Positions 8,981 through 56,127 of a stretch of DNA of 64,000 bases are shown here, piece after piece (positions within the stretch are counted from its first letter, which is position 1; each line of letters opens with the position of its first letter). Location: IMG/VR virus record IMGVR_UViG_2667527770_000005, positions 14,376 to 78,375 of that record. One strand, given 5' to 3'. The translations under genes were made by a program, and so were the position numbers. This DNA is from a virus. Taxonomy: Duplodnaviria > Heunggongvirae > Uroviricota > Caudoviricetes. The notes beneath the pieces are model-generated. The model was not told the origin of the DNA, made no database searches, and saw only the letters and a program-made list of their open reading frames with translations.

Positions 8981-9622
8981 TTATAGATAATTTCCTTTTC
9001 CTGTTAATACTCCCTTAGGCACCTGTTTTTGTGCCAGCGTTTGGGTTCCGCGAATTATGTTAATCAGAGGGCTTAGTAACGATGGTTCCTGGCGTGCCTC
9101 AACTTCTCCAGCCATTGCCCTGATGTAGTCTGCGCTGGCAACGTTGTTGTATTCCGTCGCAAAGCAACATAGTAACGTCAGAACATGCTCTGTCGTTATT
9201 TCGCTCCAGTTGATGTTGAAAAATTCATCGCCTTTTTTATCGTGTTCGGAATCGAAGATGCTTTGGTGGAGGATGTATTTGCCGGATTCCTTGCGCGGTA
9301 ACTTGATCGCTTTCTGGCGTTCCAGCTCCTTGTAAATCTGCATTGCTTCAATCAGTACCGGCCTGCCGTTCATGAAGGGATCGCGCAACCTTACACGCTG
9401 GCCAACTCGACCAGTAATAAAGCTGTTTTCCTCTTCCACCAGCACGATAAAACCCTTTTCCTCTTTTTCTCGCAATTCGCGCAGCAGCTGGAGTTCCATG
9501 TCGCGGCGGCGTTCAGGGTAGCTGGTCCGCTCAGCCATTATCAGCTCGTTGTTGATCCATGCAGCAGTCATTGACGCCGGTTTGCCGACGCTCATCGAAA
9601 CAACGCATATTTTCTTATCCAT
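8981..9622 (-). CDS. mat: Mat-like particle maturation protein
   Basis: Synteny (between ref and res/mod slot); track ORF begins with GTG at 9649, first ATG at 9622 has GGGG upstream so ATG start preferred. Confidence 0.6.
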   Translation of the reverse strand: MDKKICVVSMSVGKPASMTAAWINNELIMAERTSYPERRRDMELQLLRELREKEEKGFIVLVEEENSFITGRVGQRVRLRDPFMNGRPVLIEAMQIYKELERQKAIKLPRKESGKYILHQSIFDSEHDKKGDEFFNINWSEITTEHVLTLLCCFATEYNNVASADYIRAMAGEVEARQEPSLLSPLINIIRGTQTLAQKQVPKGVLTGKGNYL

Positions 9623-9810: not shown

Positions 9811-10371
9811 TTAGTGCATGATGTTTGCCATTTCATAGGCGTCAGCCAGCAACTCCATCTCTGACTTGTTCAGCAGGGTGAATTCTTTCTTGCCTCCAAC
9901 CACACCATCGGCATGAACAGGGACCAGCCAGGGGTATTTTGCTCTTACTTCAGCCGGAGCTGCATGCTGGTGGTGCCATCTACAAAGTGGCAATTGCTTT
10001 TTATGACAACCCGGCGCGGTACGACCGGCGATATGGTGCAGAGACATCTCATTAGATATTACTCCATGCATATAGCAGGCAATGCAGGGGAGAGTGCCAA
10101 GAGCATTGGCGATGCGCCGTTCCTCCGCCGTTGGTGTTCTCCCCTTCAAGCCACGAGATTTTATTTTTACCGCGCTTTTCCGCGTTTTGCTGGCTGGTGG
10201 GCGCTCTTTCTGTTTAGCGATACGGCGGTCGAGAGTATCCCGCATTTTCTGATATTGAGATTCTCGCCAGACCGGATCAGCCAACTTCTCCCGTTGCCGA
10301 GCGATCGCTCGTTCTCTGGCTGCCTTCTGCCACTTGCGGCACTGTTCAATTTTTTGTTCGATTGTTTTCAT
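9811..10371 (-). CDS. ref: Ref recombination enhancement HNH endonuclease, 186 aa
   Basis: HNH-like His/Cys cluster (HHIAGR..CHKKQLPLCRWHH); size and position next to cre/cra as in P1. Confidence 0.85.
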   Translation of the reverse strand: MKTIEQKIEQCRKWQKAARERAIARQREKLADPVWRESQYQKMRDTLDRRIAKQKERPPASKTRKSAVKIKSRGLKGRTPTAEERRIANALGTLPCIACYMHGVISNEMSLHHIAGRTAPGCHKKQLPLCRWHHQHAAPAEVRAKYPWLVPVHADGVVGGKKEFTLLNKSEMELLADAYEMANIMH

Positions 10372-14044: not shown

Positions 14045-15529
14045 TTATTCATTAAGCCATGCCAGAGCTTCATCAACCTGCGCTTCGTCTTCGACGCTAA
14101 GCACTTCATCCTGGGGAACATAGTTCGCCAACATAGCGAAACAATATGTATCCCAATGGTCCGGTGAGTGCAGGTTGAGTTTTTTCTTCATATCTTCCTT
14201 TGACATCACCTTCCATTGACCTGCGGAATTTATCCCTACCGGTATCTTTGATGCTTCCTCTATAGTCGCAGCCCCCTTATCAAGCCGCATACGCCCTGAT
14301 TTTACAGCTTCTGCCGCCTGAATATTCGCGAAAGCGCGCATATCGAAATAAAGGCTTTTATCTTCACGGCTGTGCATCTTTTTACCCCAGCGGATACGCT
14401 GGACGGTAATGCCATAGCGTTCGTACATTAGATCAGCCGTCGATTTCCCCAAGCCATCGCCATCAATAGCTATGGTTATGTTCGGGAACCGTTCTGGGTT
14501 ACATTCTGCGAAAATCTTGGCGGCTAACTGCGTTTCTGTAACGTCTGTGTATTCCAGCATACGATAGTTGATTACACGGCGTTTATTTCGCTGGCCGGAC
14601 ACCATCATGATATTAATAACGGACTTATCTCGCCCTGTGCCACCAGCAACGTCAACACATGCAACCCAGCCCCATCCTTTGGCAATCTTGACCTTTCGCC
14701 GCGTCGCCCGCTCAACCTCATCACGACCAAGAAGAAAGCCATCTTGAGATTTGGGAAATTCACCACGTACTTTGATCATGTACATGGGGTTATCACGACC
14801 GCCATACTCCGCAAGTTTTGCTCGTATAAATTTTGCATCTACAAGCGGAGATTCTTCACTATTCAGTATTATCGCAGTAAACAATCCATCAGGATTTCCC
14901 GGGCGAATAGCTAGTCTGTGGTGTGAATCGTAGAAATAGCCTGAAGGTCGCGTAGGCTGGGAAAGAAGCAGAATACGGTTATCCTTACCGGTCAGCGCAC
15001 CTGTTATCACACTGAATGCTTTATCACTCACACCCGACGCTTCGTCGATGATATACAAGAGATGATCGGCGTGTTCACCAGCCAACGCCTCCTCATTTCC
15101 GGGGCGACAGGACTTTATCAATATTGTCCAAACACCCTTGCCAGTCACCTCAAAAAAAGACGTTTCTGTAAGAATGAAATACTTCGACAACCACGGGAAT
15201 CTGCTAACAGCAGTAGCCCAATTGCTCTTTATGTATTTGAAAATACCATCAAGGACTTGCTGTCTTTTGTTAGCGACCAGAATGACGCGAGCGCCGGGGA
15301 AAAACATGATGAAGAGTATTGCAATGATACTCGTCATATCCGATTTACCAGTACCATGGCCGGAGGTCACACTTGTCCAACTGCCGTCCTGCTGCGTGGA
15401 CTCAATGATCTCATCCTGCTGCCAGGTTGGTGTCTTCCCAAACAACACATCAGCGGCCGCAATCCAGTCATAACGATATAGCGCCACCAGCTCGCGCCAA
15501 CGTGGGTCCGTTACGCAACTTCTGGCCAT
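14045..15529 (-). CDS. pacB: PacB terminase large subunit, 494 aa
   Basis: Walker A GHGTGKS; follows pacA; size as P1 PacB. Confidence 0.9.
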
Positions 15530-42732: not shown

Positions 42733-42763
42733 TACACTAATAAATTTATTAGAGCAATATGGC
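42733..42763. promoter_or_regulatory. tandem/overlapping C1 operators upstream (minus strand) of the tRNA-SPFH-ban transcription unit
   Basis: ACACTAATAAATTTATTAGAGCAATATGG contains two Op matches. Confidence 0.6.
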
Positions 42764-45700
42764 TATAACGTCATGAGCAACACCTCGAGTGTCTCCCTTA
42801 CAAGACACAGAACGTCTGGCAAAAAGAGGTTCCACTCTGAAGCCACTGTCATGATAAAGCTCTCTGATGTTTGGCGCGCCACTGTTAGTAATGAGAACTT
42901 TTGCACCTCGACGATGAGCATCCGTCAACAGAGACACCAGGCGTTTTTGCTCTTCAAACTTAAAGTCATGACCGGAATAGTTCGTGAATCCCTCTGTATT
43001 TGGAAGCGGTTCATACGGCGGATCGCAAAAGATGACATCTCCTTCTCCGGAAGCTTCAATCACCGCTGCAAAATCACCGCATACAAACTCAGACCGCCCT
43101 TCCGCACCGAGGAAGGCTTCCATCTCCTGTAATGGGAAATACGGAGTTTTATACTTCCCATAACCGACATTGAACTCACCGGCCTGGTTGTAACGCGTCA
43201 ATCCGTTAAAACAATGTCGGTTCAGGAACAAAAACGCCGCTGCGCGATGTAAATCATCATAGACTTGTTTGTTAAACGCATTCCGTACTGCCAGGTATCC
43301 TTCCTGTGTGTTGTAGTCCTGGAAGAAACGATGTGCCAGAGTGATAAGTGAATGCGCCTCGCGTTGCAGAGTCTTGTAAAAGTTAATCAGGTCAGCATTC
43401 ACATCATTTAGCAGATTTTCCTGGTATCCGGCATTCATGAAGACAGCTCCGCCACCAACGAAAGGTTCAATCAGGCGCTTCCCTTCTGGCAAATAGCGAA
43501 AGATTTGTTCCAGAACACCAAATTTTCCACCAGCCCATTTGAATATGGACCGTTCGAATTCTGTCGCTGGTTTAACTTTTCGCTCTTTTGTTTCACTTCC
43601 TTCTTTCTGCCGACATACGGCCTTAGTAATCCGATCGCCAATCCAGCGCATTACTGGTATTGCCATACTATTGCCGATCGCTTTGTAACGCGGTCCGTCA
43701 GCTGCAAGCATCGCGGCCTCTTCTTCGCTTAAATCTGGATAGTGATTGCGGAGATATGCCAGTTCATCTGAATTAACTTTTTTACGCTTTTCCGTCGGGA
43801 TCAACGTATGCCCATCAGGAAAACCTTGCAGCCTTTCACATTCGACAGGGGTAAGACGGCGGACAGCTACTTCTGCGTTTCTTACTTCATAGCAAACAGC
43901 TGTTGGATTTTTAGCCATTAGAGATGGTGAAGTATTCTTAGTTGCAGCATGTTGTGTACCGCTCATACGCTCAGGAAAAGCCAATGTAACAAGATGCTCA
44001 TGGCTTTCTTGCTCACGTGCCCGCAATGTACCATGCCCTTCTGACCAAAAACCTGCTCCTGTGCTGCTAAAAACGGCAAGGTCAGTGGCATCTTTAAAAT
44101 CTCTTGCCTTTACTGTCGATGCGGTTTCATCGTCAATATATTCCCCAAATGCCGCCATCCTGAAACCGTTTACGGCTTTCGTCGATTTCATACCGGGAGA
44201 CATGCCAGCGTGTAGGCATGGATTTAGGCTTTCGCCACTGATTGCAGCGCCATTTGCAATAATGGCGGAAGCGATTTCCTTCTTTTTTCGGCTCGGCGCA
44301 ATATTCCGGCGCACGCCTTCGAACTCAAAAAGTACCGTTGCGGGATCGAGGTCTGTTCGAGCACTTGCGACAACAAACACGCGTCGGCGTCGTTGTGCCA
44401 CTCCGAAGTATTGGGCATCAAGGATTCTCCAGGCCACCTTTCGCTGCGGTCCATAAATACAACCACACTGCGGCCACTTTGGAACATGGCAACCGGTTTT
44501 GCCATCCCACCGCCAGAACGCGTTGCTTTTTCCTGATTCAGGTCGATCACCTGGTTCAAATGGCACATCTTCTCCAGCCAATCCGGCAAGGAAACATCCG
44601 AAGGCGTTATCTGCCAATGACAAGACTCCTGGGACATTTTCCCAGACGATAACGGCTGGTTTGAGAAATGACTCAGCCCGTTTGTCGTCAATTGCATTTG
44701 CAAGCTCCACATACTTTAAAGTTAGCGCGCCACGCTCATCATCAAGCCCACCACGTAATCCCGCGATACTGAATGCCTGACAGTTATGGACCACCGCACC
44801 ATTGAGGATATAGGAATGATCACCTTCGACTTCTATGTTGTATACAGTATCTAGGCCTACCGATTTAAACTCTTTGACTGTTCGTAAAAGCATTCCATGA
44901 GCCAATCTTGATTTACGTGACAATTTCTGCGGGCAGATTGTTACCTGATAATAATCCCGTTGATTTACCACGCGATCCTCGATCACTTTTTTGGGCTCAA
45001 CTTCAATAAAGCTGACCGAAGAAACATAACCACAAGTCTGTGACAACCCCGCAACGCCCCAAGCAAGCGCAGGACTAACACTATTAATTCTAAATCCCGC
45101 TTTACCACTTGGTGTCCCATCAGTATCAAGATAGCCTTGTAAAAACACATGACGCAATGGATGCGACATCACCCATGCAGGGATACGTTTAGCATGGCTT
45201 AACTCGCCAAAATGTTCATTAAGCCAATTGGCATAACACGTATCATTCAAGGTTACTTTGATGCTCCCTCGGATTTCGCTTGCCACGGAAAACATGTTTT
45301 CTGGTATGTGGCAATGAAACTTTCTCAATTTCTGGCAATTTATGCCAAAAACAACCGCCTTCTTAGATTTACCTCTCCATCTCCTAATATATCCATCGCC
45401 TACATAAGCGCCCGCAAGATACATAGCCTGTTCTTCAGACAAGAACCGAGAACAAATATCTGGAGATGCAATATTGAAATTAGTTAGAGCGCACCATTGA
45501 TATCCCGGCATATCACATGCTGCTCGCCATTCCGGTTCAGACAACAACTCTCTCTTAAAATATGTGCCATTTTTCCGGGTGTTTTGGGCTTTCCACCGAA
45601 CAGCCAGGAAGGGATGGTCATTGGTTGTTCTTATACCTAAAGGCTGCCCAACGGCATTAAGTAACCCCGTATTAGCTATTTTTGAACCAACTCTTTTTAC

Positions 45701-46036
45701 TTGTTGTAACCGCCCGAGATGACTGACTACGTAATCGCCAGGGCAAACATCTTCTATTGGTTTATAACCATTTTTACAAAGAACCATATGCCCCGCGGTA
45801 AAACATGGTGTTCCCCCGACGAGCACGTCAGGGGATTCGATTTCCCCAGCCAAGACTTTTTTGGCAAGTTTTGTCATGTCGCCAAGGTTGGCGACATGGG
45901 GCCAGCGGAGCGCAAGAACGGCAGATGGAAAAGGCTCGATTTCAGCAAACCACGCCGGACGCATACCCAACGGTTCCCAGGCAATACTCGCGGCTTCAAT
46001 TCCACTGCAAACAGATCCGTAGCACAGCTCTTTCAC
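42749..46036 (-). CDS. dmt: Dmt bifunctional DNA methyltransferase (N-terminal C5-cytosine MTase, C-terminal Dam-like N6-adenine MTase) interrupted by an intein; 1095-aa precursor
   Basis: C5-MTase motifs (CSGIEA, ENV in VIVWENVPG, split PC|QAFSIAG); Dam motifs ([39 protein letters not shown]); GTG start overlapping hrdC stop. Confidence 0.9.
44783..45805 (-). mobile_element. intein (341 aa) with LAGLIDADG homing endonuclease, inserted in motif IV (PCQ) of the C5-MTase domain
   Basis: Begins Cys (CFTAGHMV), ends VVHN, followed by Cys (+1) of CQAFS; two LAGLIDADG motifs ([24 protein letters not shown]); excision restores [12 protein letters not shown] and a 754-aa host protein. Confidence 0.85.
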
Positions 46037-46941: not shown

Positions 46942-47215
46942 GTAACCCTTGAATATCAACCACAGAAAGCTCGTCTTTGTAGAAAAATGCCAGGTTGTGG
47001 CACCCCCTCGTTTGAGCGTATGAGCTGGGACCAATTTCGTTCTTCCAGACAAATGGCTTCAAATCCGTACGGCGAAGCATAAAAACGCGATTTGTTCCGC
47101 TCTGATTCCCAATGAGGCAAAAGCCTTCTTTCACCTTGATAGCCTGCAAGTTGTCGAGTTCACCGCTGGTTACACGGCTATCGAACTCTTTGCGACTTAT
47201 TAGCTCCATCTGCAT
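46931..47215 (-). CDS. small protein upstream of hrdC, about 94 aa
   Basis: Synteny (uhr position); start chosen at internal ATG. Confidence 0.4.
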
Positions 47216-47286
47216 CTGACGACTCCAAACAAATACCCATTGAAGGGCGATGGCTGAATGGTACCGAAAACAAGACATAAAAAACA

Positions 47287-47303
47287 ATATTTATTAGGGC
47301 AAT
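47287..47303. promoter_or_regulatory. C1 operator-like site (one mismatch) upstream of uhr-hrdC-dmt operon
   Basis: ATTTATTAGGGCAATTA. Confidence 0.5.
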
Positions 47304-47383
47304 TATGCAATAGTTGACGCCATGTAGACCACAAGTAACCTAAGTTAAAATAAAGAAAACCAGAGCAAATTATTGGTGATGCC

Positions 47384-47668
47384 GTGGCAAGTATTGCAAC
47401 AAAAGACAGCATTTGTTCGGGGCACGGAGGATTCCCATCCAGGCCTCCTGTAGAGAGTGAACCACTACTTAAAGTCAACGGAGTCGAAGTGTTAGTTGAT
47501 GGTAAGCAATATGCACAGCATACCGATGGAAACAGTACGCACGGTGGGCAAGCTATATCAACCAGGGCATGGTTTACCGTCAATAGTAAAGGGATCGTAT
47601 GCGTTGGTGACCCTGTTTCATGCGGATCTACCGTAGCGTCCGGAGACGGCCTGGTTCAGGTAAGTTAG
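47384..47668 (+). CDS. PAAR-like small protein, 94 aa
   Basis: Gly/Cys/His-rich pattern (CSGHGG ... VCVGDPVSCGS) resembling PAAR tip proteins; GTG start. Confidence 0.4.
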   Translation: MASIATKDSICSGHGGFPSRPPVESEPLLKVNGVEVLVDGKQYAQHTDGNSTHGGQAISTRAWFTVNSKGIVCVGDPVSCGSTVASGDGLVQVS

Positions 47669-47676
47669 GAGATATC

Positions 47677-48465
47677 ATGCTGGAAAAAGACTACCAGTTA
47701 TCCGCATATAAAAAATTGGCCGCCGCCGGTGGGATGAAAACACCTGGTGCCATAACATCGGCACGAAACTGTGCTAACACAGCAAAACTGCTTGCAGAAG
47801 AATTGACCGGATTAATTCTGGATACAATTGTCTATCCCGACACTATTACCTGCTATGTTTCAACGATAAGAACAACCACAACCGGCTTAACGAACATTGG
47901 AGAACTGGCAACTAAGCACGCGGACCTGTTGGCTGGTTATGCAGATCTGTCAATGCTGCTTCAACTCGATATTGGTTGGGATGTTTACTGCCGTGCTAAT
48001 GAGCGAGAAGTTTCAGAACTGCCGATCTCTATTGCCATTGGTGATGTGAATATTACTAAATCGCTTGAGGACGCTGTTAACGCGCTTAATACATCAAGTT
48101 TAGTCGCTGCTATGGGGGAGATTAACCAGACCCTTAACACTGGCTCAGTAAGCTCGTCAGGCTCTGGTTCAGGCGGCGGCACTGCCACTCCCCCACCAAC
48201 ACTAACAGAAGAGCAAATTGAATCTCTGAAAGTAGCAACTGAACAGTTTGGGGTTGTTTTCAACCAGACAACAGCGCCCACAACTGCGTTACAACAGCAG
48301 TATGAACGAGCGAATGAAAGCGCCAACGTAGCCATAACTGCTTATGGCCATGCTATCGGTACCGCGCTTGCGGAAGCATCAGCAAATAAGGCCAGCACAG
48401 CCAGCGCAGTTGCTGCTTTGGTTCCTGATTCTGTTCTTGATGAATTAAACAAAGCGGCACAGTAA
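47677..48465 (+). CDS. hypothetical protein, 262 aa
   Basis: ATG with AGGAG SD; Ser/Gly-rich linker. Confidence 0.5.
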   Translation: MLEKDYQLSAYKKLAAAGGMKTPGAITSARNCANTAKLLAEELTGLILDTIVYPDTITCYVSTIRTTTTGLTNIGELATKHADLLAGYADLSMLLQLDIGWDVYCRANEREVSELPISIAIGDVNITKSLEDAVNALNTSSLVAAMGEINQTLNTGSVSSSGSGSGGGTATPPPTLTEEQIESLKVATEQFGVVFNQTTAPTTALQQQYERANESANVAITAYGHAIGTALAEASANKASTASAVAALVPDSVLDELNKAAQ

Positions 48466-48504
48466 CAAAGGACTTCATTGATAATTTTTCTTCAGGAGGA
48501 AGAC

Positions 48505-48921
48505 ATGTCATTCTTTTCTACGTTAAAAACAGCTTTGTCTTTGAAGGAGAAACTTGCTGCTACTGGTGTTCTTGTTCTGATTTGCGCACTTGTTGGTGCT
48601 GGGTTTGCATGGGAACGTCATCAGCTAAAGCAAGCCATAGAGAAAATTGGCAGTCTTGATCAGGCTGTTAAGGAACGTGATAAGTCAATAATGGATCTTA
48701 ACCAGACCATTGAGACGATGAACAAAGCAGAGCAACATTTTCACAGCCAGGAAGTGAAAAATGAATCAGAGCAAGCCAAGTATGCTGACAGGCAAATGGA
48801 ACGAAAAGCTGAAGTTCAGAAACAACTGGTTGCGGCGGGTAATGTTCGCCAGCGCATTCCTGCTGACACTCAGCGGTTGCTCCGGGAGTCGATCAGCGAA
48901 TTTAACGCCGACAAAGGTTAA
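48505..48921 (+). CDS. Rz-like inner-membrane spanin candidate (N-terminal TM, coiled coil), about 138 aa
   Basis: ATG with AGGAGG SD; TM helix LAATGVLVLICALVGAGFAW; overlapping lipoprotein ORF in +1 frame. Confidence 0.5.
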   Translation: MSFFSTLKTALSLKEKLAATGVLVLICALVGAGFAWERHQLKQAIEKIGSLDQAVKERDKSIMDLNQTIETMNKAEQHFHSQEVKNESEQAKYADRQMERKAEVQKQLVAAGNVRQRIPADTQRLLRESISEFNADKG

Positions 48922-49087
48922 CCACCCTGCCCCCAAAAGTGCATTTATGTGCAGGATGCCGGAGTTTAGCAGTGAATATTTTGATGATCTGCCAGCGTAT
49001 ATCCTCGATACAGAAACGATGCTGATGGGGATTAACAGGAAGAATCGCAACGTTAATGATTACAACCGCGCTATCAGCGGTAACTAA
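48842..49087 (+). CDS. Rz1-like outer-membrane lipoprotein candidate, about 81 aa
   Basis: Lipobox LSGC; starts inside the Rz-like ORF in another frame. Confidence 0.5.
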   Translation: MFASAFLLTLSGCSGSRSANLTPTKVNHPAPKSAFMCRMPEFSSEYFDDLPAYILDTETMLMGINRKNRNVNDYNRAISGN

Positions 49088-49098
49088 AAGGGATTTTT

Positions 49099-49491
49099 AT
49101 GTCTGATAAAGTAACAGTTAAGCAAACTATCAACAAAGCGACTTCAATCTACAAAATTGAGCACATCACTGTTGGCAAGCCAGGATCTGAACAATACCGT
49201 CATGCTTTCGAGCTTGCCGCTCAGCTTGGTTTAAAACACCCGGATTGCATTGAGCATGTATTTCCGACCTATGCTGATGAGCAATGTACTCATGTTCTTA
49301 CCGAAGAGGATTTTTTCAGCACTGAAGAACGAGAAGGCGTTGATCGCTGCATTGGTGTGATTTGCTCTTCAGTGAGTTATGAGTTATTCCCTAATGTCCA
49401 TGAAAATGGTGGTATTGGATACCAATTCCTGTACGAAGGCGATGAGCTTAAATGTTATGAACATGGTCTTCTTATCGAAAGCGTAGAATAA
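49099..49491 (+). CDS. hypothetical protein, 130 aa (upfA position upstream of oriR)
   Basis: Synteny only. Confidence 0.5.
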   Translation: MSDKVTVKQTINKATSIYKIEHITVGKPGSEQYRHAFELAAQLGLKHPDCIEHVFPTYADEQCTHVLTEEDFFSTEEREGVDRCIGVICSSVSYELFPNVHENGGIGYQFLYEGDELKCYEHGLLIESVE

Positions 49492-49543
49492 TACCCTTCC
49501 TTCCAACCGGCTATGTTGGCCGGTTTATTCAACTTATCCACAG

Positions 49544-49615
49544 CATAGATCCAATAAACAGATCCCAAAGAGAACCTAGGAAGATCCAAAGAAGATCCCG
49601 GATCGCTGTAAGCCG
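49544..49615. promoter_or_regulatory. oriR core: DnaA box TTATCCACA followed by five GATC (Dam) sites
   Basis: DnaA box at 49544..49552; GATC at about 49558, 49571, 49593, 49604, 49611. Confidence 0.7.
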
Positions 49616-49645
49616 CGCCGTTCATGGCCTGAAACGGGATCAACA

Positions 49646-49750
49646 TTGACTATACGCGATTTTATGTTGACTGTGTGCGATTTTATGTTGACTGCACGCG
49701 ATTTATTGTTGACTATACGCGACAGAAACGTTGACTGTACGCGATTTTAG
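49646..49750 (+). repeat. five direct iterons (TTGACT(A/G)T(A/G)CGCGATTT) upstream of repA, incC-like
   Basis: About 21-bp periodicity read directly. Confidence 0.8.
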
Positions 49751-49825
49751 AGCCTGAATATTCACAGCTGTTGATAACAGTCATCTAAATTAACGCCAGG
49801 CCGCGCCACACATGGAGAAACCACG

Positions 49826-50710
49826 ATGCCGGAAGAAAGTAAAGGCTTCCTTAGCGTTGAAGAAGTTGCAGGAAATACAGGAGAAATCCACAGCCTGAAG
49901 CCCAATAACAACAGCACTATACAACCTATCGCTTTGTTGCGCTTAGGTGTGTTTGTGCCAACCTTAAAATCTACCAATGTGGCACTACGTCGCGGATCGT
50001 CAGTTACTACAAACACAACGAACGCAACCGAAGAACTATCAAGCCTTAAAATTGTTGAGCAGGAAGGCTATGAGGGAATTGAAATTCATGGCCCACGCCT
50101 GGATATGGATACTGATTTTAAGGTGTGGGTGGGCATAACCTCCGCGTTGTTTGACTACGCACCTGATGATGACGGCATAATCACCCTGCCATTCTCCGAG
50201 TTTGCCGATCGATGCGGCTATCCACGTAAGCGCCTTTCAAAGGCGTTCCGTAAAAGTATTGATGACTCTCTGACACGCATTCAGCAGACAGTTGTCAAAT
50301 TCCGCTTCCCGGCGGCAAAAGGTCATCTCAATAACATTAACGTCAACTTGTTGGCATATAGCAGCCTGAATACCGAGCTTGATGTTATCGAGATCCAGCC
50401 GCAGAAACAGCTATCTGAACTTTACTATGTTGACTATAAGCGAATCCTGAAGCTGAAGATGCTGGATAAGCTCGGGCGCAAAGAGACGGCCAAGGTACTG
50501 TATACATTCTTTGAGGCTCTACCCGCCAACCCGGCACCTGTCAGCATTGAGCGCCTTAGAGCAAGGCTTAATCTCAAATCATCCGTTAGCGTGCAAAATA
50601 GCGTTATCAGAAAAGCCATGAAAGATTTGGAAGCTATTGAATATCTTAAATTTTCAGAAATAAAAAACGGCAGGAAAATCGGCTTCCAGATCCATAAGCG
50701 CAATCCATAA
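49826..50710 (+). CDS. repA: RepA iteron-binding plasmid replication initiator, 294 aa
   Basis: Flanked by iterons both sides; segments such as GPRLDMDTDFK and LRLGVFVP resemble P1 RepA as recalled. Confidence 0.88.
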   Translation: MPEESKGFLSVEEVAGNTGEIHSLKPNNNSTIQPIALLRLGVFVPTLKSTNVALRRGSSVTTNTTNATEELSSLKIVEQEGYEGIEIHGPRLDMDTDFKVWVGITSALFDYAPDDDGIITLPFSEFADRCGYPRKRLSKAFRKSIDDSLTRIQQTVVKFRFPAAKGHLNNINVNLLAYSSLNTELDVIEIQPQKQLSELYYVDYKRILKLKMLDKLGRKETAKVLYTFFEALPANPAPVSIERLRARLNLKSSVSVQNSVIRKAMKDLEAIEYLKFSEIKNGRKIGFQIHKRNP

Positions 50711-50970
50711 TATTGACTATATGCGATAGCGAGAAGTTGACTATAGGCGACATTCGTTGACGCTGGTGGATTTTTGCTGGCGTCAATATTCTGCAAGTCG
50801 CTATTGAGATGGCTTTTAGGGTCATTTCATCGCGTATAGTCAACGTTTCTCCCGACAATATCTTACATAGTCGATCTTTGGTGGAGTTAAATCGACTACA
50901 GTCAACTTTTGACTGTAGTCACATCGCGCATAGTCAACTATTCACATTAACTTTCGCGCATAGTCAACAT
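50710..50970. repeat. incA-like iteron array downstream of repA (TTGACTAT..CG units in both orientations)
   Basis: At least 7 iteron-like units, e.g. 50713, 50736, 50830, 50891, 50904, 50920, 50953. Confidence 0.7.
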
Positions 50971-51002
50971 TTGCGCGGTTCTCATCAAGCAGTGGTATTG
51001 AT

Positions 51003-51812
51003 ATGCAAGAAGAGAAACAACACTACCTCTACGTTCTGGTGCCGGAGAATGGAGATACTTTTAAAATCGGCATTTCATGTGGTCCATTGGCACGGTTTAA
51101 AGGGCTACAAGTGAGTCCCGATTTTGCGCTTTCACGGGTCTATCGTGGTACGCGTTTGGCAATAGTTAATCTTGAGCGGGCTTTACACGCAACCTTTTTC
51201 CCCTGGAATGCGCCGTGGGAGAAAAGCGCTGGTGGCGGGCATACTGAATGGTTTACACGAGAGTGTCTTGATAAGGTTTTGGCTCATATCGAATATCTAA
51301 ATGATATGTGGGGAGGGATTCTCGAGCGCATTAAGTCGAATGATTTACTTCAGCGTCCAGTAGATGCTGCCCGCTCTTTCGAAAAAGAGCTGGATGTTAC
51401 TTCTATCGTGACTTTCAAAGATGACGCAGGAATGAGGGACGTGGCTTATGTCTCCATATCTGGCTATGAACCGGACGCGATCCGCGCTCAATGTGAATTG
51501 CTGAAAGCAATGTTTATGCTTCGGACTAAATATTCCTGGGAGACAAGGCGGGTGTGCTTCCCTATGGAAGAGTTAACCGCCACCATTGATTCCCAGCTTT
51601 ACCACGATAATCCAGAGAAGTTTTTTAGCCTTTTAGCCGGTAATGGGCTTAACTGTGTGTCCGGGCTGGGGCGAAGTAGAATCCAACATGCCTCGCTCTT
51701 CGGTCCCTTCTTTTACGATCGACACGGGTACTTTGAGGCTGAACTTCCGGCGCTTACGCGTGCTATAGATACTATCGATTTCGAACGATTATTCGCTGCT
51801 CTTAGCAAATAA
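51003..51812 (+). CDS. T5orf172-domain (GIY-YIG-like) protein with unknown C-terminal domain, 269 aa
   Basis: N-terminal pattern YLYVL..FKIGIS..RFKGLQ..LERALHATF..GGGHTEWF. Confidence 0.6.
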   Translation: MQEEKQHYLYVLVPENGDTFKIGISCGPLARFKGLQVSPDFALSRVYRGTRLAIVNLERALHATFFPWNAPWEKSAGGGHTEWFTRECLDKVLAHIEYLNDMWGGILERIKSNDLLQRPVDAARSFEKELDVTSIVTFKDDAGMRDVAYVSISGYEPDAIRAQCELLKAMFMLRTKYSWETRRVCFPMEELTATIDSQLYHDNPEKFFSLLAGNGLNCVSGLGRSRIQHASLFGPFFYDRHGYFEAELPALTRAIDTIDFERLFAALSK

Positions 51813-51819
51813 CACTGAT

Positions 51820-51841
51820 GCCCCTGAACGGGGCTTTTTTG
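51820..51841 (+). terminator. intrinsic terminator (GCCCC-TGAAC-GGGGC + T7)
   Basis: Read directly. Confidence 0.6.
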
Positions 51842-51980
51842 TGCCCTCCTTGTAACTCTCAATCGTGCAAAATGAACCAAACATGCAGAGAATGCTATGT
51901 ACAAGCATCTGTGCATACATTATTATTTTATGCAGCATTTTTAATTAAATTCAAAAATACAGCATAAAGGATGGCTTTCG

Positions 51981-53177
51981 ATGAGTGATTCCAGCCAGCT
52001 TCACAAGGTTGCTCAAAGAGCAAACAGAATGCTCAATGTTCTGACTGAACAAGTACAGTTGCAAAAGGATGAGCTACACGCGAACGAGTTTTACCAGGTC
52101 TATGCGAAAGCGGCACTGGCAAAATTGCCTCTACTGACTCGAGCGAACGTTGACTATGCCGTGAGTGAAATGGAAGAAAAGGGTTATGTTTTCGATAAAC
52201 GCCCTGCTGGCTCTTCAATGAAATATGCGATGTCAATTCAGAACATCATTGACATATATGAACATCGCGGAGTGCCAAAATACCGGGATCGCTACAGCGA
52301 AGCGTATGTGATTTTCATCTCCAATCTTAAAGGCGGTGTGTCAAAAACTGTATCGACGGTTTCTCTGGCGCATGCAATGCGTGCTCACCCTCATCTTCTG
52401 ATGGAAGATTTAAGGATTCTGGTTATTGACCTTGATCCGCAATCTTCAGCAACGATGTTTTTAAGCCATAAACACTCTATTGGTATCGTAAACGCAACAT
52501 CTGCACAGGCTATGTTGCAGAATGTAAGCCGTGAAGAGCTGTTAGAGGAGTTTATTGTTCCTTCTGTTGTACCTGGGGTTGACGTTATGCCTGCGTCGAT
52601 TGACGATGCCTTTATTGCATCCGATTGGAGAGAGCTGTGCAATGAGCATCTACCGGGTCAGAACATCCATGCTGTCCTGAAAGAAAATGTGATTGATAAG
52701 CTGAAGAGCGATTATGACTTTATCCTCGTTGATAGTGGTCCTCACCTTGACGCCTTCCTGAAAAATGCTTTGGCCTCGGCCAATATACTGTTTACACCTC
52801 TGCCGCCTGCAACGGTTGATTTCCACTCATCGCTTAAATACGTTGCCCGCCTTCCTGAGTTGGTGAAACTCATTTCGGATGAAGGCTGCGAGTGCCAGCT
52901 TGCGACTAACATTGGTTTTATGTCCAAGTTGAGTAACAAGGCAGACCATAAGTATTGCCATAGCCTGGCTAAAGAAGTGTTCGGTGGGGATATGCTTGAT
53001 GTCGTCCTCCCTCGCCTTGACGGTTTTGAACGCTGCGGCGAGTCTTTTGACACTGTTATTTCAGCTAACCCGGCAACGTATGTTGGTAGTGCTGATGCAT
53101 TGAAGAACGCGCGAATTGCCGCGGAAGATTTTGCTAAAGCAGTTTTTGACCGTATTGAATTTATCAGATCTAACTGA
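51981..53177 (+). CDS. parA: ParA partition ATPase, 398 aa
   Basis: Deviant Walker A NLKGGVSKT; size as P1 ParA. Confidence 0.95.
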   Translation: MSDSSQLHKVAQRANRMLNVLTEQVQLQKDELHANEFYQVYAKAALAKLPLLTRANVDYAVSEMEEKGYVFDKRPAGSSMKYAMSIQNIIDIYEHRGVPKYRDRYSEAYVIFISNLKGGVSKTVSTVSLAHAMRAHPHLLMEDLRILVIDLDPQSSATMFLSHKHSIGIVNATSAQAMLQNVSREELLEEFIVPSVVPGVDVMPASIDDAFIASDWRELCNEHLPGQNIHAVLKENVIDKLKSDYDFILVDSGPHLDAFLKNALASANILFTPLPPATVDFHSSLKYVARLPELVKLISDEGCECQLATNIGFMSKLSNKADHKYCHSLAKEVFGGDMLDVVLPRLDGFERCGESFDTVISANPATYVGSADALKNARIAAEDFAKAVFDRIEFIRSN

Positions 53178-53193
53178 GGAGTAAGAAACCCCC

Positions 53194-54195
53194 ATGTCAA
53201 AGAAAAACAGACCAACAATTGGGCGAACCCTTAATCCTTCAATATTAAGCGGATTTGATAGTTCTTCAGCCTCTGGCGATCGAGTCGAGCAGGTATTCAA
53301 GTTATCAACTGGTCGCCAGGCCACATTTATTGAAGAGGTAATACCTCCGAACCAGGTAGAAAGCGATACCTTTGTTGATCAGCATAACAACGGGCGTGAC
53401 CAGGCATCTCTTACGCCAAAATCATTAAAAAGTATCCGAAGCACTATTAAGCATCAGCAATTTTACCCTGCAATAGGTGTTAGACGGGCTACAGGGAAAA
53501 TTGAAATTTTGGATGGTTCCCGGCGTCGAGCTTCTGCCATCTTAGAGAACGTAGGGTTGCGGGTTTTAGTCACGGACCAGGAGATCAGCGTTCAGGAAGC
53601 GCAAAATTTAGCGAAAGACGTTCAGACAGCATTGCAGCACAGCATTCGAGAAATAGGTCTGCGTTTGATGCGAATGAAAAATGATGGGATGAGTCAGAAG
53701 GATATTGCAGCCAAAGAAGGGCTGTCTCAGGCGAAGGTCACGCGTGCTCTCCAGGCAGCGAGTGCTCCGGAAGAATTAGTCGCCCTTTTCCCTGTGCAGT
53801 CGGAATTAACCTTTTCGGACTACAAAACGCTTTGTGCTGTTGGCGACGAAATGGGGAACAAGAATTTAGAGTTTGATCAGCTTATTCAAAACATATCCCC
53901 GGAAATAAACGACATCTTATCCATTGAAGAAATGGCCGAAGATGAAGTTAAAAATAAAATCCTGCGCTTGATAACAAAGGAAGCCTCACTACTCACGGAT
54001 AAAGGTTCTAAAGATAAGTCCGTAGTTACTGAATTATGGAAATTTGAGGACAAGGATCGCTTTGCAAGGAAGCGCGTGAAAGGCCGTGCATTTTCTTATG
54101 AGTTTAATCGACTTTCAAAAGAGCTACAGGAAGAACTCGACAGGATGATTGGGCATATCCTTAGAAAGAGCCTCGATAAAAAGCCGAAGCCTTAA
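53194..54195 (+). CDS. parB: ParB centromere-binding protein, 333 aa
   Basis: Follows parA, precedes parS; size as P1 ParB. Confidence 0.93.
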   Translation: MSKKNRPTIGRTLNPSILSGFDSSSASGDRVEQVFKLSTGRQATFIEEVIPPNQVESDTFVDQHNNGRDQASLTPKSLKSIRSTIKHQQFYPAIGVRRATGKIEILDGSRRRASAILENVGLRVLVTDQEISVQEAQNLAKDVQTALQHSIREIGLRLMRMKNDGMSQKDIAAKEGLSQAKVTRALQAASAPEELVALFPVQSELTFSDYKTLCAVGDEMGNKNLEFDQLIQNISPEINDILSIEEMAEDEVKNKILRLITKEASLLTDKGSKDKSVVTELWKFEDKDRFARKRVKGRAFSYEFNRLSKELQEELDRMIGHILRKSLDKKPKP

Positions 54196-54199
54196 ACTT

Positions 54200-54285
54200 T
54201 CGCCATTCAAATTTCACTATTAACCTACTGTTTTTAAAGTAAATCCATCTAAAATTTCAAGGTGAAATCGCCACGATTTCACCTT
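54200..54285. other. parS: parS centromere: box B TCGCCA and box A ATTTCAC motifs flanking an AT-rich IHF-like spacer
   Basis: TCGCCA at 54200 and 54268; ATTTCAC at 54211, 54276 and inverted at 54262. Confidence 0.8.
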
Positions 54286-54420
54286 GGATTTTACCTTCCG
54301 CCCCTACTCCCGAAAAAAATAAAAAAATTGCTTGTCACGAGAAAGTCAACAAGTGACTTTCAATAAAATCTCTTCCGAAAAGGGATTCACACAAGTGCCT
54401 TGTGTTTAAGGAAGAGTAAA

Positions 54421-56127
54421 TTGAGTAACTTACGCGAATACCAGAATCGTATTGCAGATATCGCAAAACGCTCTAAAGCTGTGCTTGGCTGGGCAAGCAC
54501 TGCGCAGTTCGGTACTGATAACCAATTCATTAAAGATGATGCCGCGCGTGCCGCATCTATCCTTGAAGCTGCACGTAAAGACCCGGTTTTTGCGGGTATC
54601 TCTGATAATGCCACCGCTCAAATCGCTACAGCGTGGGCAAGTGCACTGGCTGACTACGCCGCAGCACATAAATCTATGCCGCGTCCGGAAATTCTGGCCT
54701 CCTGCCACCAGACGCTGGAAAACTGCCTGATTGAGTCCACCCGCAATAGCATGGATGCCACTAATAAAGCGATGCTGGAATCCGTCGCAGCAGAGATGAT
54801 GAGCGTTTCTGACGGTGTTATGCGTCTGCCTTTATTCCTCGCGATGATCCTGCCTGTTCAGTTGGGGGCAGCTACCGCTGATGCGTGTACCTTCATTCCG
54901 GTTACGCGTGACCAGTCCGACATCTATGAAGTCTTTAACGTGGCAGGTTCCTCTTTTGGTTCTTATGCTGCTGGTGATGTTCTGGACATGCAATCCGTCG
55001 GTGTGTACAGCCAGTTACGTCGCCGCTATGTGCTGGTGGCAAGCTCCGATGGCACCAGCAAAACCGCAACCTTCAAGATGGAAGACTTCGAAGGCCAGAA
55101 TGTACCAATCCGAAAAGGTCGCACTAACATCTACGTTAACCGTATTAAGTCTGTTGTTGATAACGGTTCCGGCAGCCTACTTCACTCGTTTACTAATGCT
55201 GCTGGTGAGCAAATCACTGTTACCTGCTCTCTGAACTACAACATTGGTCAGATTGCCCTGTCGTTCTCCAAAGCGCCGGATAAAGGCACTGAGATCGCAA
55301 TTGAGACGGAAATCAATATTGAAGCCGCTCCTGAGCTGATCCCGCTGATCAACCACGAAATGAAGAAATACACCCTGTTCCCAAGCCAGTTCGTTATCGC
55401 GGCTGAGCACACGGTACAGGCGGCGTATGAAGCACAGCGTGAATTTGGTCTGGACCTGGGTTCCCTACAGTTCCGCACCCTGAAGGAATACCTGTCTCAT
55501 GAACAGGATATGCTGCGTCTTCGCATCATGATCTGGCGTACTCTTGCGACCGACACCTTTGACATCGCTCTGCCGGTTAACCAGTCCTTTGATGTATGGG
55601 CAACCATCATTCGTGGCAAATTCCAGACTGTATATCGCGACATTATTGAGCGCGTTAAATCTTCTGGTGCGATGGGGATGTTTGCTGGTGCTGATGCAGC
55701 ATCTTTCTTCAAACAGTTGCCGAAGGATTTCTTCCAGCCAGCCGAAGACTATATCCAGACTCCGTATGTTCACTTCATCGGTACCCTGTTCGGTAACGTG
55801 AAAGTGTACGAAGTACCTGCTGGTATTTGTAAGAACTTAACGACAGAGAACATTCAGTTCAGCTCGATGGATGTGCTGTGCTACGTCCGTGATGAAAATC
55901 CGGGTAAAGCAGGCTTCGTGACTGGTGATGCTGTCCCGGCCATCCCGTTCCAGCATCCGACCACTCCGGCGCTGGTCAACCGTACCACGCTGTGGGGTTC
56001 GGCTATCAACGATATGCACCCACGCAACGGCGCTGATTACTTCACTCGTGTAACGCTGACAATGGCCAAAAAAGGCGGGCTTAACTTCATAAGCGGCGAC
56101 ACGATTGATGCCGGTGACTCTGAGTAA
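54421..56127 (+). CDS. major head (capsid) protein precursor candidate, about 568 aa
   Basis: Position after parS (P1 gene 23 position); TTG start with AAGGAAG SD (track start is an upstream TTG at 54400). Confidence 0.55.
   Translation: MSNLREYQNRIADIAKRSKAVLGWASTAQFGTDNQFIKDDAARAASILEAARKDPVFAGISDNATAQIATAWASALADYAAAHKSMPRPEILASCHQTLENCLIESTRNSMDATNKAMLESVAAEMMSVSDGVMRLPLFLAMILPVQLGAATADACTFIPVTRDQSDIYEVFNVAGSSFGSYAAGDVLDMQSVGVYSQLRRRYVLVASSDGTSKTATFKMEDFEGQNVPIRKGRTNIYVNRIKSVVDNGSGSLLHSFTNAAGEQITVTCSLNYNIGQIALSFSKAPDKGTEIAIETEINIEAAPELIPLINHEMKKYTLFPSQFVIAAEHTVQAAYEAQREFGLDLGSLQFRTLKEYLSHEQDMLRLRIMIWRTLATDTFDIALPVNQSFDVWATIIRGKFQTVYRDIIERVKSSGAMGMFAGADAASFFKQLPKDFFQPAEDYIQTPYVHFIGTLFGNVKVYEVPAGICKNLTTENIQFSSMDVLCYVRDENPGKAGFVTGDAVPAIPFQHPTTPALVNRTTLWGSAINDMHPRNGADYFTRVTLTMAKKGGLNFISGDTIDAGDSE

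Follow-up and report, generated by a model that had tools for sequence, protein, structure and literature searches.

A predicted two-domain nuclease gene marks the right-hand end of an exchangeable replicon module in P1-like phage-plasmids with a p0111-type replicon. The gene product has a T5orf172 (GIY-YIG-type) domain with its catalytic residues intact, and diverged homologs hold the same position between repA and parA in three more P1-like lineages. The gene is exchanged together with repA and the iterons, evolves under weak selection, and is dispensable for plasmid maintenance. The favored reading, for now a tentative one and a little short of probable, is that of a passenger nuclease acting on rival P1-like elements through homing-like drive or replicon competition. 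The analysis centers on a window of 64,000 nucleotides, the whole stretch of DNA that was examined (positions 14,376 to 78,375 of IMG/VR record IMGVR_UViG_2667527770_000005).

Organization of the Replicon

The window derives from a P1-like phage-plasmid of the RCS47/SJ46 type. The region shares 99.6% identity with RCS47 and 98-99% with SJ46, JL22, phi456, and other P1-like phage-plasmids, and over the nuclease gene it is 100% identical to plasmid NZ_CP015997.1 of E. coli S51. The replicon opens with five direct iterons of ~21-bp spacing in the origin, or incC-like, position (49645-49744, plus strand). These are followed by repA (49826-50710, plus strand), which encodes a p0111-type iteron initiator of 294 aa with matches to Pfam Rep3_C (E 4.4e-6) and Rep3_N (E 2.4e-4). 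Six incA-like control iterons, two direct and four inverted, come next (50712-50968), and then the nuclease gene (51003-51812, plus strand). The block is closed before the par promoter, Ppar, by an intrinsic terminator (51820-51841, plus strand), a GCCCC-TGAAC-GGGGC hairpin with a T-run. Beyond it lie a P1-type par promoter/operator region (51879-51980, plus strand), where homology to P1 restarts, and parA and parB (51981-54195, plus strand), whose products are 100% identical to those of P1.

Much of this was anticipated by the original prediction, which placed a 269-aa gene with its own ATG and a strong terminator between incA-like iterons and parA. Both the reading frame and the terminator are present as described, the hairpin having a folding energy of -11.9 kcal/mol (z = -2.8 against shuffles). 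A homologous hairpin also lies downstream of the gene in one of the diverged lineages (L006). The iterons are equally clear: with as many as 3 mismatches allowed, the window has 13 copies of the pattern GTTGACTATACGCGA where 1.3 would be expected, and 12 of the 13 fall at 49645-50968, with five upstream of repA, one within it, and six between repA and the nuclease ORF. The copy inside the repA coding sequence (50429-50443, plus strand) has 1 mismatch. In P1 itself the 190 bp from the last incA iteron to Ppar contain no gene, also as predicted.

The accompanying idea that the gene is accessory cargo wedged into the P1 replicon is not supported. The neighboring iterons and repA are not those of P1, and the whole stretch from 49620 to 51878 has been replaced. 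The pattern search of the window found no iterons 3' of the ORF, which would have meant insertion inside incA. The GC content of the gene (0.474) equals the window mean and gives no compositional signal.

Exchange of the Replicon Cassette

Comparison with P1 (NC_005856) by blastn delimits the replaced stretch. Identity is 94% across 47000-49619 and 99.2% across 51879-54500, and between these flanks nothing can be aligned except one 59-bp patch in repA. A specificity cassette of 2,259 bp (49620-51878, plus strand) thus stands in for 1,500 bp of P1 comprising the incC iterons, repA, and incA. The left junction falls exactly at the first iteron, with the oriR DnaA box and GATC repeats common to P1, and the right junction is the upstream edge of Ppar, 67 bp past the nuclease stop codon. 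RepA is 42% identical to the RepA of P1. The p0111-versus-IncY swap seen here has already been published. The gene itself has been seen before without comment on its role: Venturini et al. list "2 orfs inserted between repA and parA" of pSvP1 with no function given (PMC6906374), and the JL22 gene is named "gp57" without a function, no characterization of the gene having been found in the papers searched.

The ParA and ParB proteins of the window match those of P1 at 100% identity, and RCS47 is 99.6% identical to the window across this region; this disagrees with the SJ46 paper, in which the RCS47 ParA and ParB are described as P7-like and distant from P1 (PMC5241659).

A second, independent swap is found within a divergent P1-like lineage represented by loci L003 and L004, which come from Logan ERR2144811 and SRR6505940 and from NCBI GCA_007478465.1 (Salmonella). 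ParA in this lineage is 89-90% identical to that of P1, and no upfA gene was called in either locus. Both replicon types occur in the lineage, and the nuclease variant differs between them. Between L003 and L004, ParA is 100% and ParB 98% identical and the flanks are 96-99% identical, whereas inside the swapped stretch RepA falls to 41% and the nuclease to 28%. The swapped stretch spans the first iteron to 84 bp past the nuclease stop codon. Since these edges match the edges between the window and P1, the same unit is exchanged in both lineages, and the nuclease gene is its right-hand end.

With junctions 67 bp and 84 bp past its stop codon, the gene sits at the edge of the recombination tract, where a homing endonuclease gene is expected. 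Another account of the edges should be kept in mind. They may only mark where the conserved flanks begin (Ppar on one side, the DnaA-box region on the other), and any homologous exchange would tend to end at functionally conserved sequence.

Distribution and Relatives

The nuclease gene is common and is tied to its replicon. The protein is encoded by 401 plasmids of PLSDB, in every case at 90% identity or more. The database has 391 records with at least 80% of the protein and likewise 391 with at least 80% of the cassette; within PLSDB the gene is never found apart from a p0111-type repA. Among complete E. coli genomes, 412 of 5,426 (7.6%) have the gene, at 414 plasmid and 7 chromosomal places. 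A partial copy in pTB422 was set aside as merely a rearrangement junction in a cointegrate.

Relatives were sought by a word-indexed search of 5.8 billion proteins and by an exhaustive HMMER profile search of 1.84 billion representatives. Only three more full-length relatives were recovered (P0004, P0009, and P0011), and ~160 further proteins share the N-terminal domain only. All three full-length relatives occupy the repA-parA slot of divergent P1-like elements (L003, L004/L005, and L006), and the homologs are 25-44% identical across lineages. All four deep branches of the family therefore lie between repA and parA.

The family accompanies three RepA types, one of them IncY-type, and P1 proper is the exception: its RepA is 83% identical to that of L004, and it has no nuclease copy. 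Protein distances suggest some independent movement of the nuclease, since its tree does not track RepA. The window and L003 have RepA proteins 84% identical with nucleases at 44%, whereas L004 and L006 have RepA at 43% with nucleases at 38%; for the window and L004 the values are 42% and 31%. Searches of the P1 incA-Ppar spacer by tblastn and alignment with all four family proteins gave no relic of the gene, a result compatible with either loss or gain. The P0009-type gene is absent from PLSDB, and hence the IncY plasmids there are without a family member.

No empty-site p0111 replicon occurs among the 391 PLSDB plasmids. P1 is without the gene and RCS47-type elements have it, with flanks 94-99% identical, and absence always goes with a different repA and iteron set. 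Because presence and absence in PLSDB are fully tied to replicon type, the classical polymorphism of a homing gene is not seen. The original prediction would have been overturned by a gene universal among P1 relatives with a known structural role, and the distribution is otherwise, with P1 and the IncY elements of PLSDB lacking it. Nor does it describe cargo, as the gene is inseparable from the p0111-type repA and its diverged homologs sit in the identical slot in three more lineages. A gene that is replaced as part of a block, is tied to repA, and has homologs in the same slot is an old slot-specific resident rather than a recent insertion.

The same distribution bears on whether the gene could be an anti-phage defense or superinfection-exclusion effector directed at unrelated phages, with its place in the replicon incidental. 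P1-like elements carry many defense and exclusion genes, and fast evolution, weak selection, and frequent loss would all be compatible with such a role. Distant relatives of the N-terminal domain adjoin chromosomal toxin-antitoxin genes, although as a clue to function these relatives were rejected, being solitary chromosomal genes unlinked to rep genes. A defense role would not account for the strict position beside repA across the four diverged lineages or for the co-swapping with repA. It would also have to be carried out by a lone gene with no partner sensor, and a search of the whole protein against PADLOC-DB v2 returned no defense family at E up to 1. A defense effector is distinctly unlikely.

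Domains of the Nuclease Protein

The N-terminal domain (aa 1-105; 51003-51317, plus strand) matches the Pfam T5orf172 family (PF10544) over aa 8-85 with an E value of 7.6e-6 and 26.8 bits, against a curated cutoff of 20, which bears out the T5orf172 signature proposed from the letters alone. The full-length protein also matches PHROG 2876, a family of unknown function, and phrog_681, labeled "endonuclease," is matched at 1e-9. In an alignment of 63 relatives detected with HMMER, Y10, K21, G23, R31, S44, E58, and E82 are invariant and L61, H62, G79, W83, and F84 are nearly so. The window protein retains every one of these positions, and Y10, K21, G23, R31, and E82 are invariant also across the four full-length branches. 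The T5orf172 nuclease Odn keeps the catalytic Arg and Glu, and its E180A form is inactive (PMC8263062). The HMM score, the motif residues, and an alpha/beta fold all place the protein in the T5orf172 branch of the GIY-YIG nucleases. That the gene product is a catalytically competent-looking T5orf172 endonuclease is the best-supported conclusion on its function. The fuller claim, that the ORF encodes a free-standing, site-specific, two-domain endonuclease of this branch and that it has the conflict role described below, is plausible without quite being probable.

The C-terminal ~165 aa have no match in Pfam, NCBIfam, PADLOC, or PDB sequences, in keeping with the original description of this part as unassigned, and the whole protein likewise has no NCBIfam match. 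The zinc fingers that often accompany T5orf172 domains (CapR, DUF723, and DUF4397) gave no Pfam match at E up to 10. The sequence has five scattered cysteines (26, 88, 164, 185, and 218) and no CxxC motif. An AlphaFold2 (AF2) model built from the four family branches, a 4-sequence alignment, reached a mean pLDDT of 73.4; an earlier model from a 3-sequence alignment was too poor to use (pLDDT 55.6) and was discarded. In the retained model the lineage-specific C-terminal domain (aa ~128-269; 51384-51809, plus strand) has a predicted fold that weakly resembles the WH1 winged helix of iteron-binding initiators, with TM scores of at most 0.42 and E above 0.01, below significance. The resemblance is a lead, not a finding.

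The two domains have diverged to different extents. Between the window and L003 the N-terminal domain is 65% identical and the C-terminal domain 30%, a pattern consistent with diversifying or relaxed selection on a specificity domain. The RepA proteins of this pair are 84% identical, which argues against the C-terminal domain recognizing the iterons or RepA of its own replicon.

These observations are relevant to a more specific possibility, that of an Odn-like, origin-directed nuclease in which a diverged-WH1 C-terminal domain would guide the enzyme to the iterons or RepA of a rival and destroy its origin, making it an incompatibility weapon. The precedent is ICP1 Odn, a T5orf172 nuclease with a RepA-derived DNA-binding domain that cuts the PLE origin. 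The gene here adjoins repA and iterons and is exchanged along with both. RepA mimicry was looked for by sequence and rejected: hhalign of the C-terminal domain profile against a P1-like RepA profile was null (probability 0.2%), as were HMM searches of PDB and Pfam with the C-terminal domain. This counts only weakly against a WH1 origin because P1-like RepA itself is likewise not linkable by sequence to solved Rep structures. Also against the possibility are the structural scores, all below significance in a model from four sequences (mean pLDDT 73), and the 30% identity of the C-terminal domains in the window and L003, which share iterons as well as similar RepA proteins. An Odn-like weapon is rather unlikely on this evidence. 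The particular claim that a replicon-borne T5orf172 nuclease with a diverged WH1-like domain would cleave rival P1-like iterons or RepA complexes is unlikely as well.

Selection and Dispensability

Selection was estimated by the Nei-Gojobori method across 44 loci from IMG/VR and GTDB. The repA gene is intact in 43 of 44 loci with a dN/dS of 0.021, and parA in 39 of 44 with a dN/dS of 0.002; of the five non-intact parA copies, three differ in the last two bases only, one has a gap, and one gave no match. The nuclease gene is intact in 35 of 44 loci, and its dN/dS of 0.33 is 15 times that of repA and much alike in its two domains (0.31 and 0.34). Synonymous diversity (pS) in loci L007-L050 is 0.027 for the nuclease gene, 0.040 for parA, and 0.050 for repA; in nonsynonymous diversity the nuclease gene exceeds the other two 8- to 90-fold. 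The low nuclease pS might reflect a more recent spread of the gene.

Knock-outs of the nuclease gene are frequent and recurrent. They occur in 8 of 43 loci (~19%) and are of at least four independent origins; a ninth non-intact copy ends at a contig end. The most common allele, S112*, is a TCG>TAG change at codon 112 (51336-51338) in five loci (L011, L012, L014, L015, and L017). It splits the gene into a 111-aa nuclease-domain ORF (P0156, 151 members) and a 168-aa C-terminal ORF (P0003, 229 members). Q228* is found in one 103,445-bp contig, putatively SJ46, and a W68* allele was found as well. In another allele ~1.76 kb stands in place of codons ~99-174. In the protein database, clusters of truncated products have 151, 205, and 229 members, compared with 1,241 for the intact protein.

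Weak purifying selection with recurrent degeneration is the pattern expected of a homing-type gene. It is not that of a core replicon gene: the nuclease gene is absent from P1 and from the IncY elements of PLSDB, and its nonsense alleles occur in elements that are maintained. The gene is dispensable for plasmid maintenance and does not belong to the replication or partition machinery.

The same figures could describe a functionless remnant that decays while hitch-hiking with repA, given that 19% of copies are disrupted and that the dN/dS of 0.33 is equal in both domains. A remnant in this sense is highly doubtful. The dN/dS stays clearly under 1, about 80% of copies have an uninterrupted ORF, and both the ORF and the invariant catalytic residues are kept across lineages that are 25-44% identical, a persistence that requires long-term selection.

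Expression and a Possible Regulatory Role

No consensus sigma-70 promoter lies directly 5' of the nuclease gene in the window, L004, or L006. L003 has two 9-of-12 promoter matches upstream of the gene, one within repA (9550-9577) and one at 9936-9963. In the window, L003, and L006 no terminator was predicted in the interval from repA to the gene, and L004 has one doubtful hairpin before the gene that overlaps the iterons. As the gene has no consensus promoter before it and no terminator separates it from repA, co-transcription with repA through the control iterons is possible.

This arrangement invites a different reading, in which the protein is a domesticated, CapR-like DNA-binding regulator of repA, incA, or par expression, or of copy number. 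T5orf172 proteins have been domesticated as repressors elsewhere, as with CapR of PLE. The gene may share a RepA-autoregulated transcript, and it starts 22-34 bp past the last control iteron in all four lineages (34 bp in the window). A regulator is nevertheless very improbable here. The catalytic residues are fully kept, the CapR, DUF723, and DUF4397 domains and the CxxC motif are all missing, P1 works without the gene, and knock-out alleles are common in maintained elements. The elevated dN/dS relative to repA also speaks against it.

Relationship to Known Systems

The closest parallels are the T5orf172 homing endonucleases of the ICP1 Gp53/121/130 type and of T5-like phages. They share with the window protein the nuclease domain and its Tyr, Lys-x-Gly, Arg, and Glu residues, and in both cases a conserved nuclease domain is joined to a fast-diverging second domain. 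Both are solitary genes that adjoin essential genes at the edge of a recombining module. There are also clear differences. About 87% of phage T5orf172 proteins have CapR, DUF723, or DUF4397 zinc fingers (PMC10448857), whereas the window protein has a lineage-restricted C-terminal domain. The phage homing endonucleases belong to lytic phages, and the gene described here is part of the plasmid-maintenance replicon of a temperate phage-plasmid. Unlike the homing endonucleases, it showed no empty-site polymorphism among the 391 PLSDB plasmids.

Odn (ICP1 Gp88) has the T5orf172 nuclease domain in common with the window protein, a structural match in the predicted model. Both are associated with modular, swappable iteron replicons, and the second domain of the window protein may be initiator-derived too. 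Odn binds DNA through an N-terminal domain that shares 42% identity with the PLE RepA_N domain (PMC8263062), whereas the extra domain here is C-terminal, weakly WH1-like in the model, and without similarity to RepA in sequence. The Odn gene belongs to the attacker and lies far from the target replicon, in contrast to the gene described here, which lies inside a replicon. SLX1 and the other structure-specific GIY-YIG nucleases are 11-16% identical to the window protein and unrelated in biology; SLX1 depends on SLX4 and includes a RING-type zinc finger.

The P1 (IncY) replicon has the same architecture, with a DnaA box and GATC repeats, five origin iterons, repA, control iterons, and Ppar-parA-parB. 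It differs in having nine incA iterons and no gene before Ppar, where the window has a different iteron sequence and an added nuclease gene and terminator.

The window genome has a second homing-type element. The dmt gene (42749-46036, minus strand) encodes 1,095 aa, compared with 863 and 845 aa for the Dmt homologs of L003 and L004, which have no intein. An intein-like insert interrupts the catalytic motif of the C5-methyltransferase (GGTP|CFTAGH...VVHN|CQAFS), and between the methylase segments Pfam recognizes Hint_2 (aa 77-126) and LAGLIDADG_3 (aa 298-358).

The annotation "GIY-YIG nuclease family protein" was already known, and co-replacement with the repA' gene has been noted in print. 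New here are the confinement of the family to the single repA-parA slot of P1-like elements, the co-swapping of nuclease and replicon in two lineages, and the occurrence of the family beside an IncY-type RepA. The weak selection and recurrent knock-out of the gene are also new, as is the lineage-specific C-terminal domain, whose modeled fold is possibly like that of an initiator.

Proposed Role and Significance

A nuclease, homing, or immunity function, the class first suggested for the gene, is still judged the most plausible. Within that class, the reading we favor is a passenger nuclease permanently lodged at the right-hand end of the specificity module that P1-like replicons exchange, the order within the module being origin iterons, repA, control iterons, nuclease gene, and terminator. 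It would act in conflicts between P1-like elements that differ only in the replicon module, cutting a relative, whether already resident in the cell or newly arriving, in the corresponding region. The cut rival would either be lost or be repaired from the nuclease-carrying copy, and repair would drive the linked repA-iteron cassette into new backbones in a homing-like manner. We infer the nuclease activity, its target, and the drive mechanism; action on rivals is proposed because of the analogy with Odn and with the T5orf172 homing endonuclease genes, which in phages are documented at the boundaries of recombination modules (PMC10448857).

The slot specificity of all four branches counts in favor of this passenger-nuclease reading, as does the pairing of a conserved N-terminal with a divergent C-terminal domain, which looks typical of a nuclease joined to a specificity domain. 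On the other side, divergence to 25-44% identity at one constant position suggests that the gene has been inherited vertically for a long time, as a purely selfish homing gene seldom is. Should the conflict role prove wrong, a useful annotation would still result: a dispensable T5orf172 nuclease that goes with the p0111 cassette, neither cargo nor replication factor.

ESBL and mcr genes are often carried by P1-like phage-plasmids, whose backbones are nearly the same while their replicons fall into two main types, IncY and p0111. If the swap is driven or policed by the nuclease, this would provide a concrete mechanism for the exchange of replicon modules and for competition among co-infecting phage-plasmids, and the paradigm set by Odn and the homing endonucleases would extend from the conflicts of lytic phages to plasmid incompatibility. 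An active incompatibility weapon, if that is what the gene encodes, would explain why at least two interchangeable replicon types persist on such similar backbones, and in its origin-directed form it would be the plasmid counterpart of ICP1 Odn.
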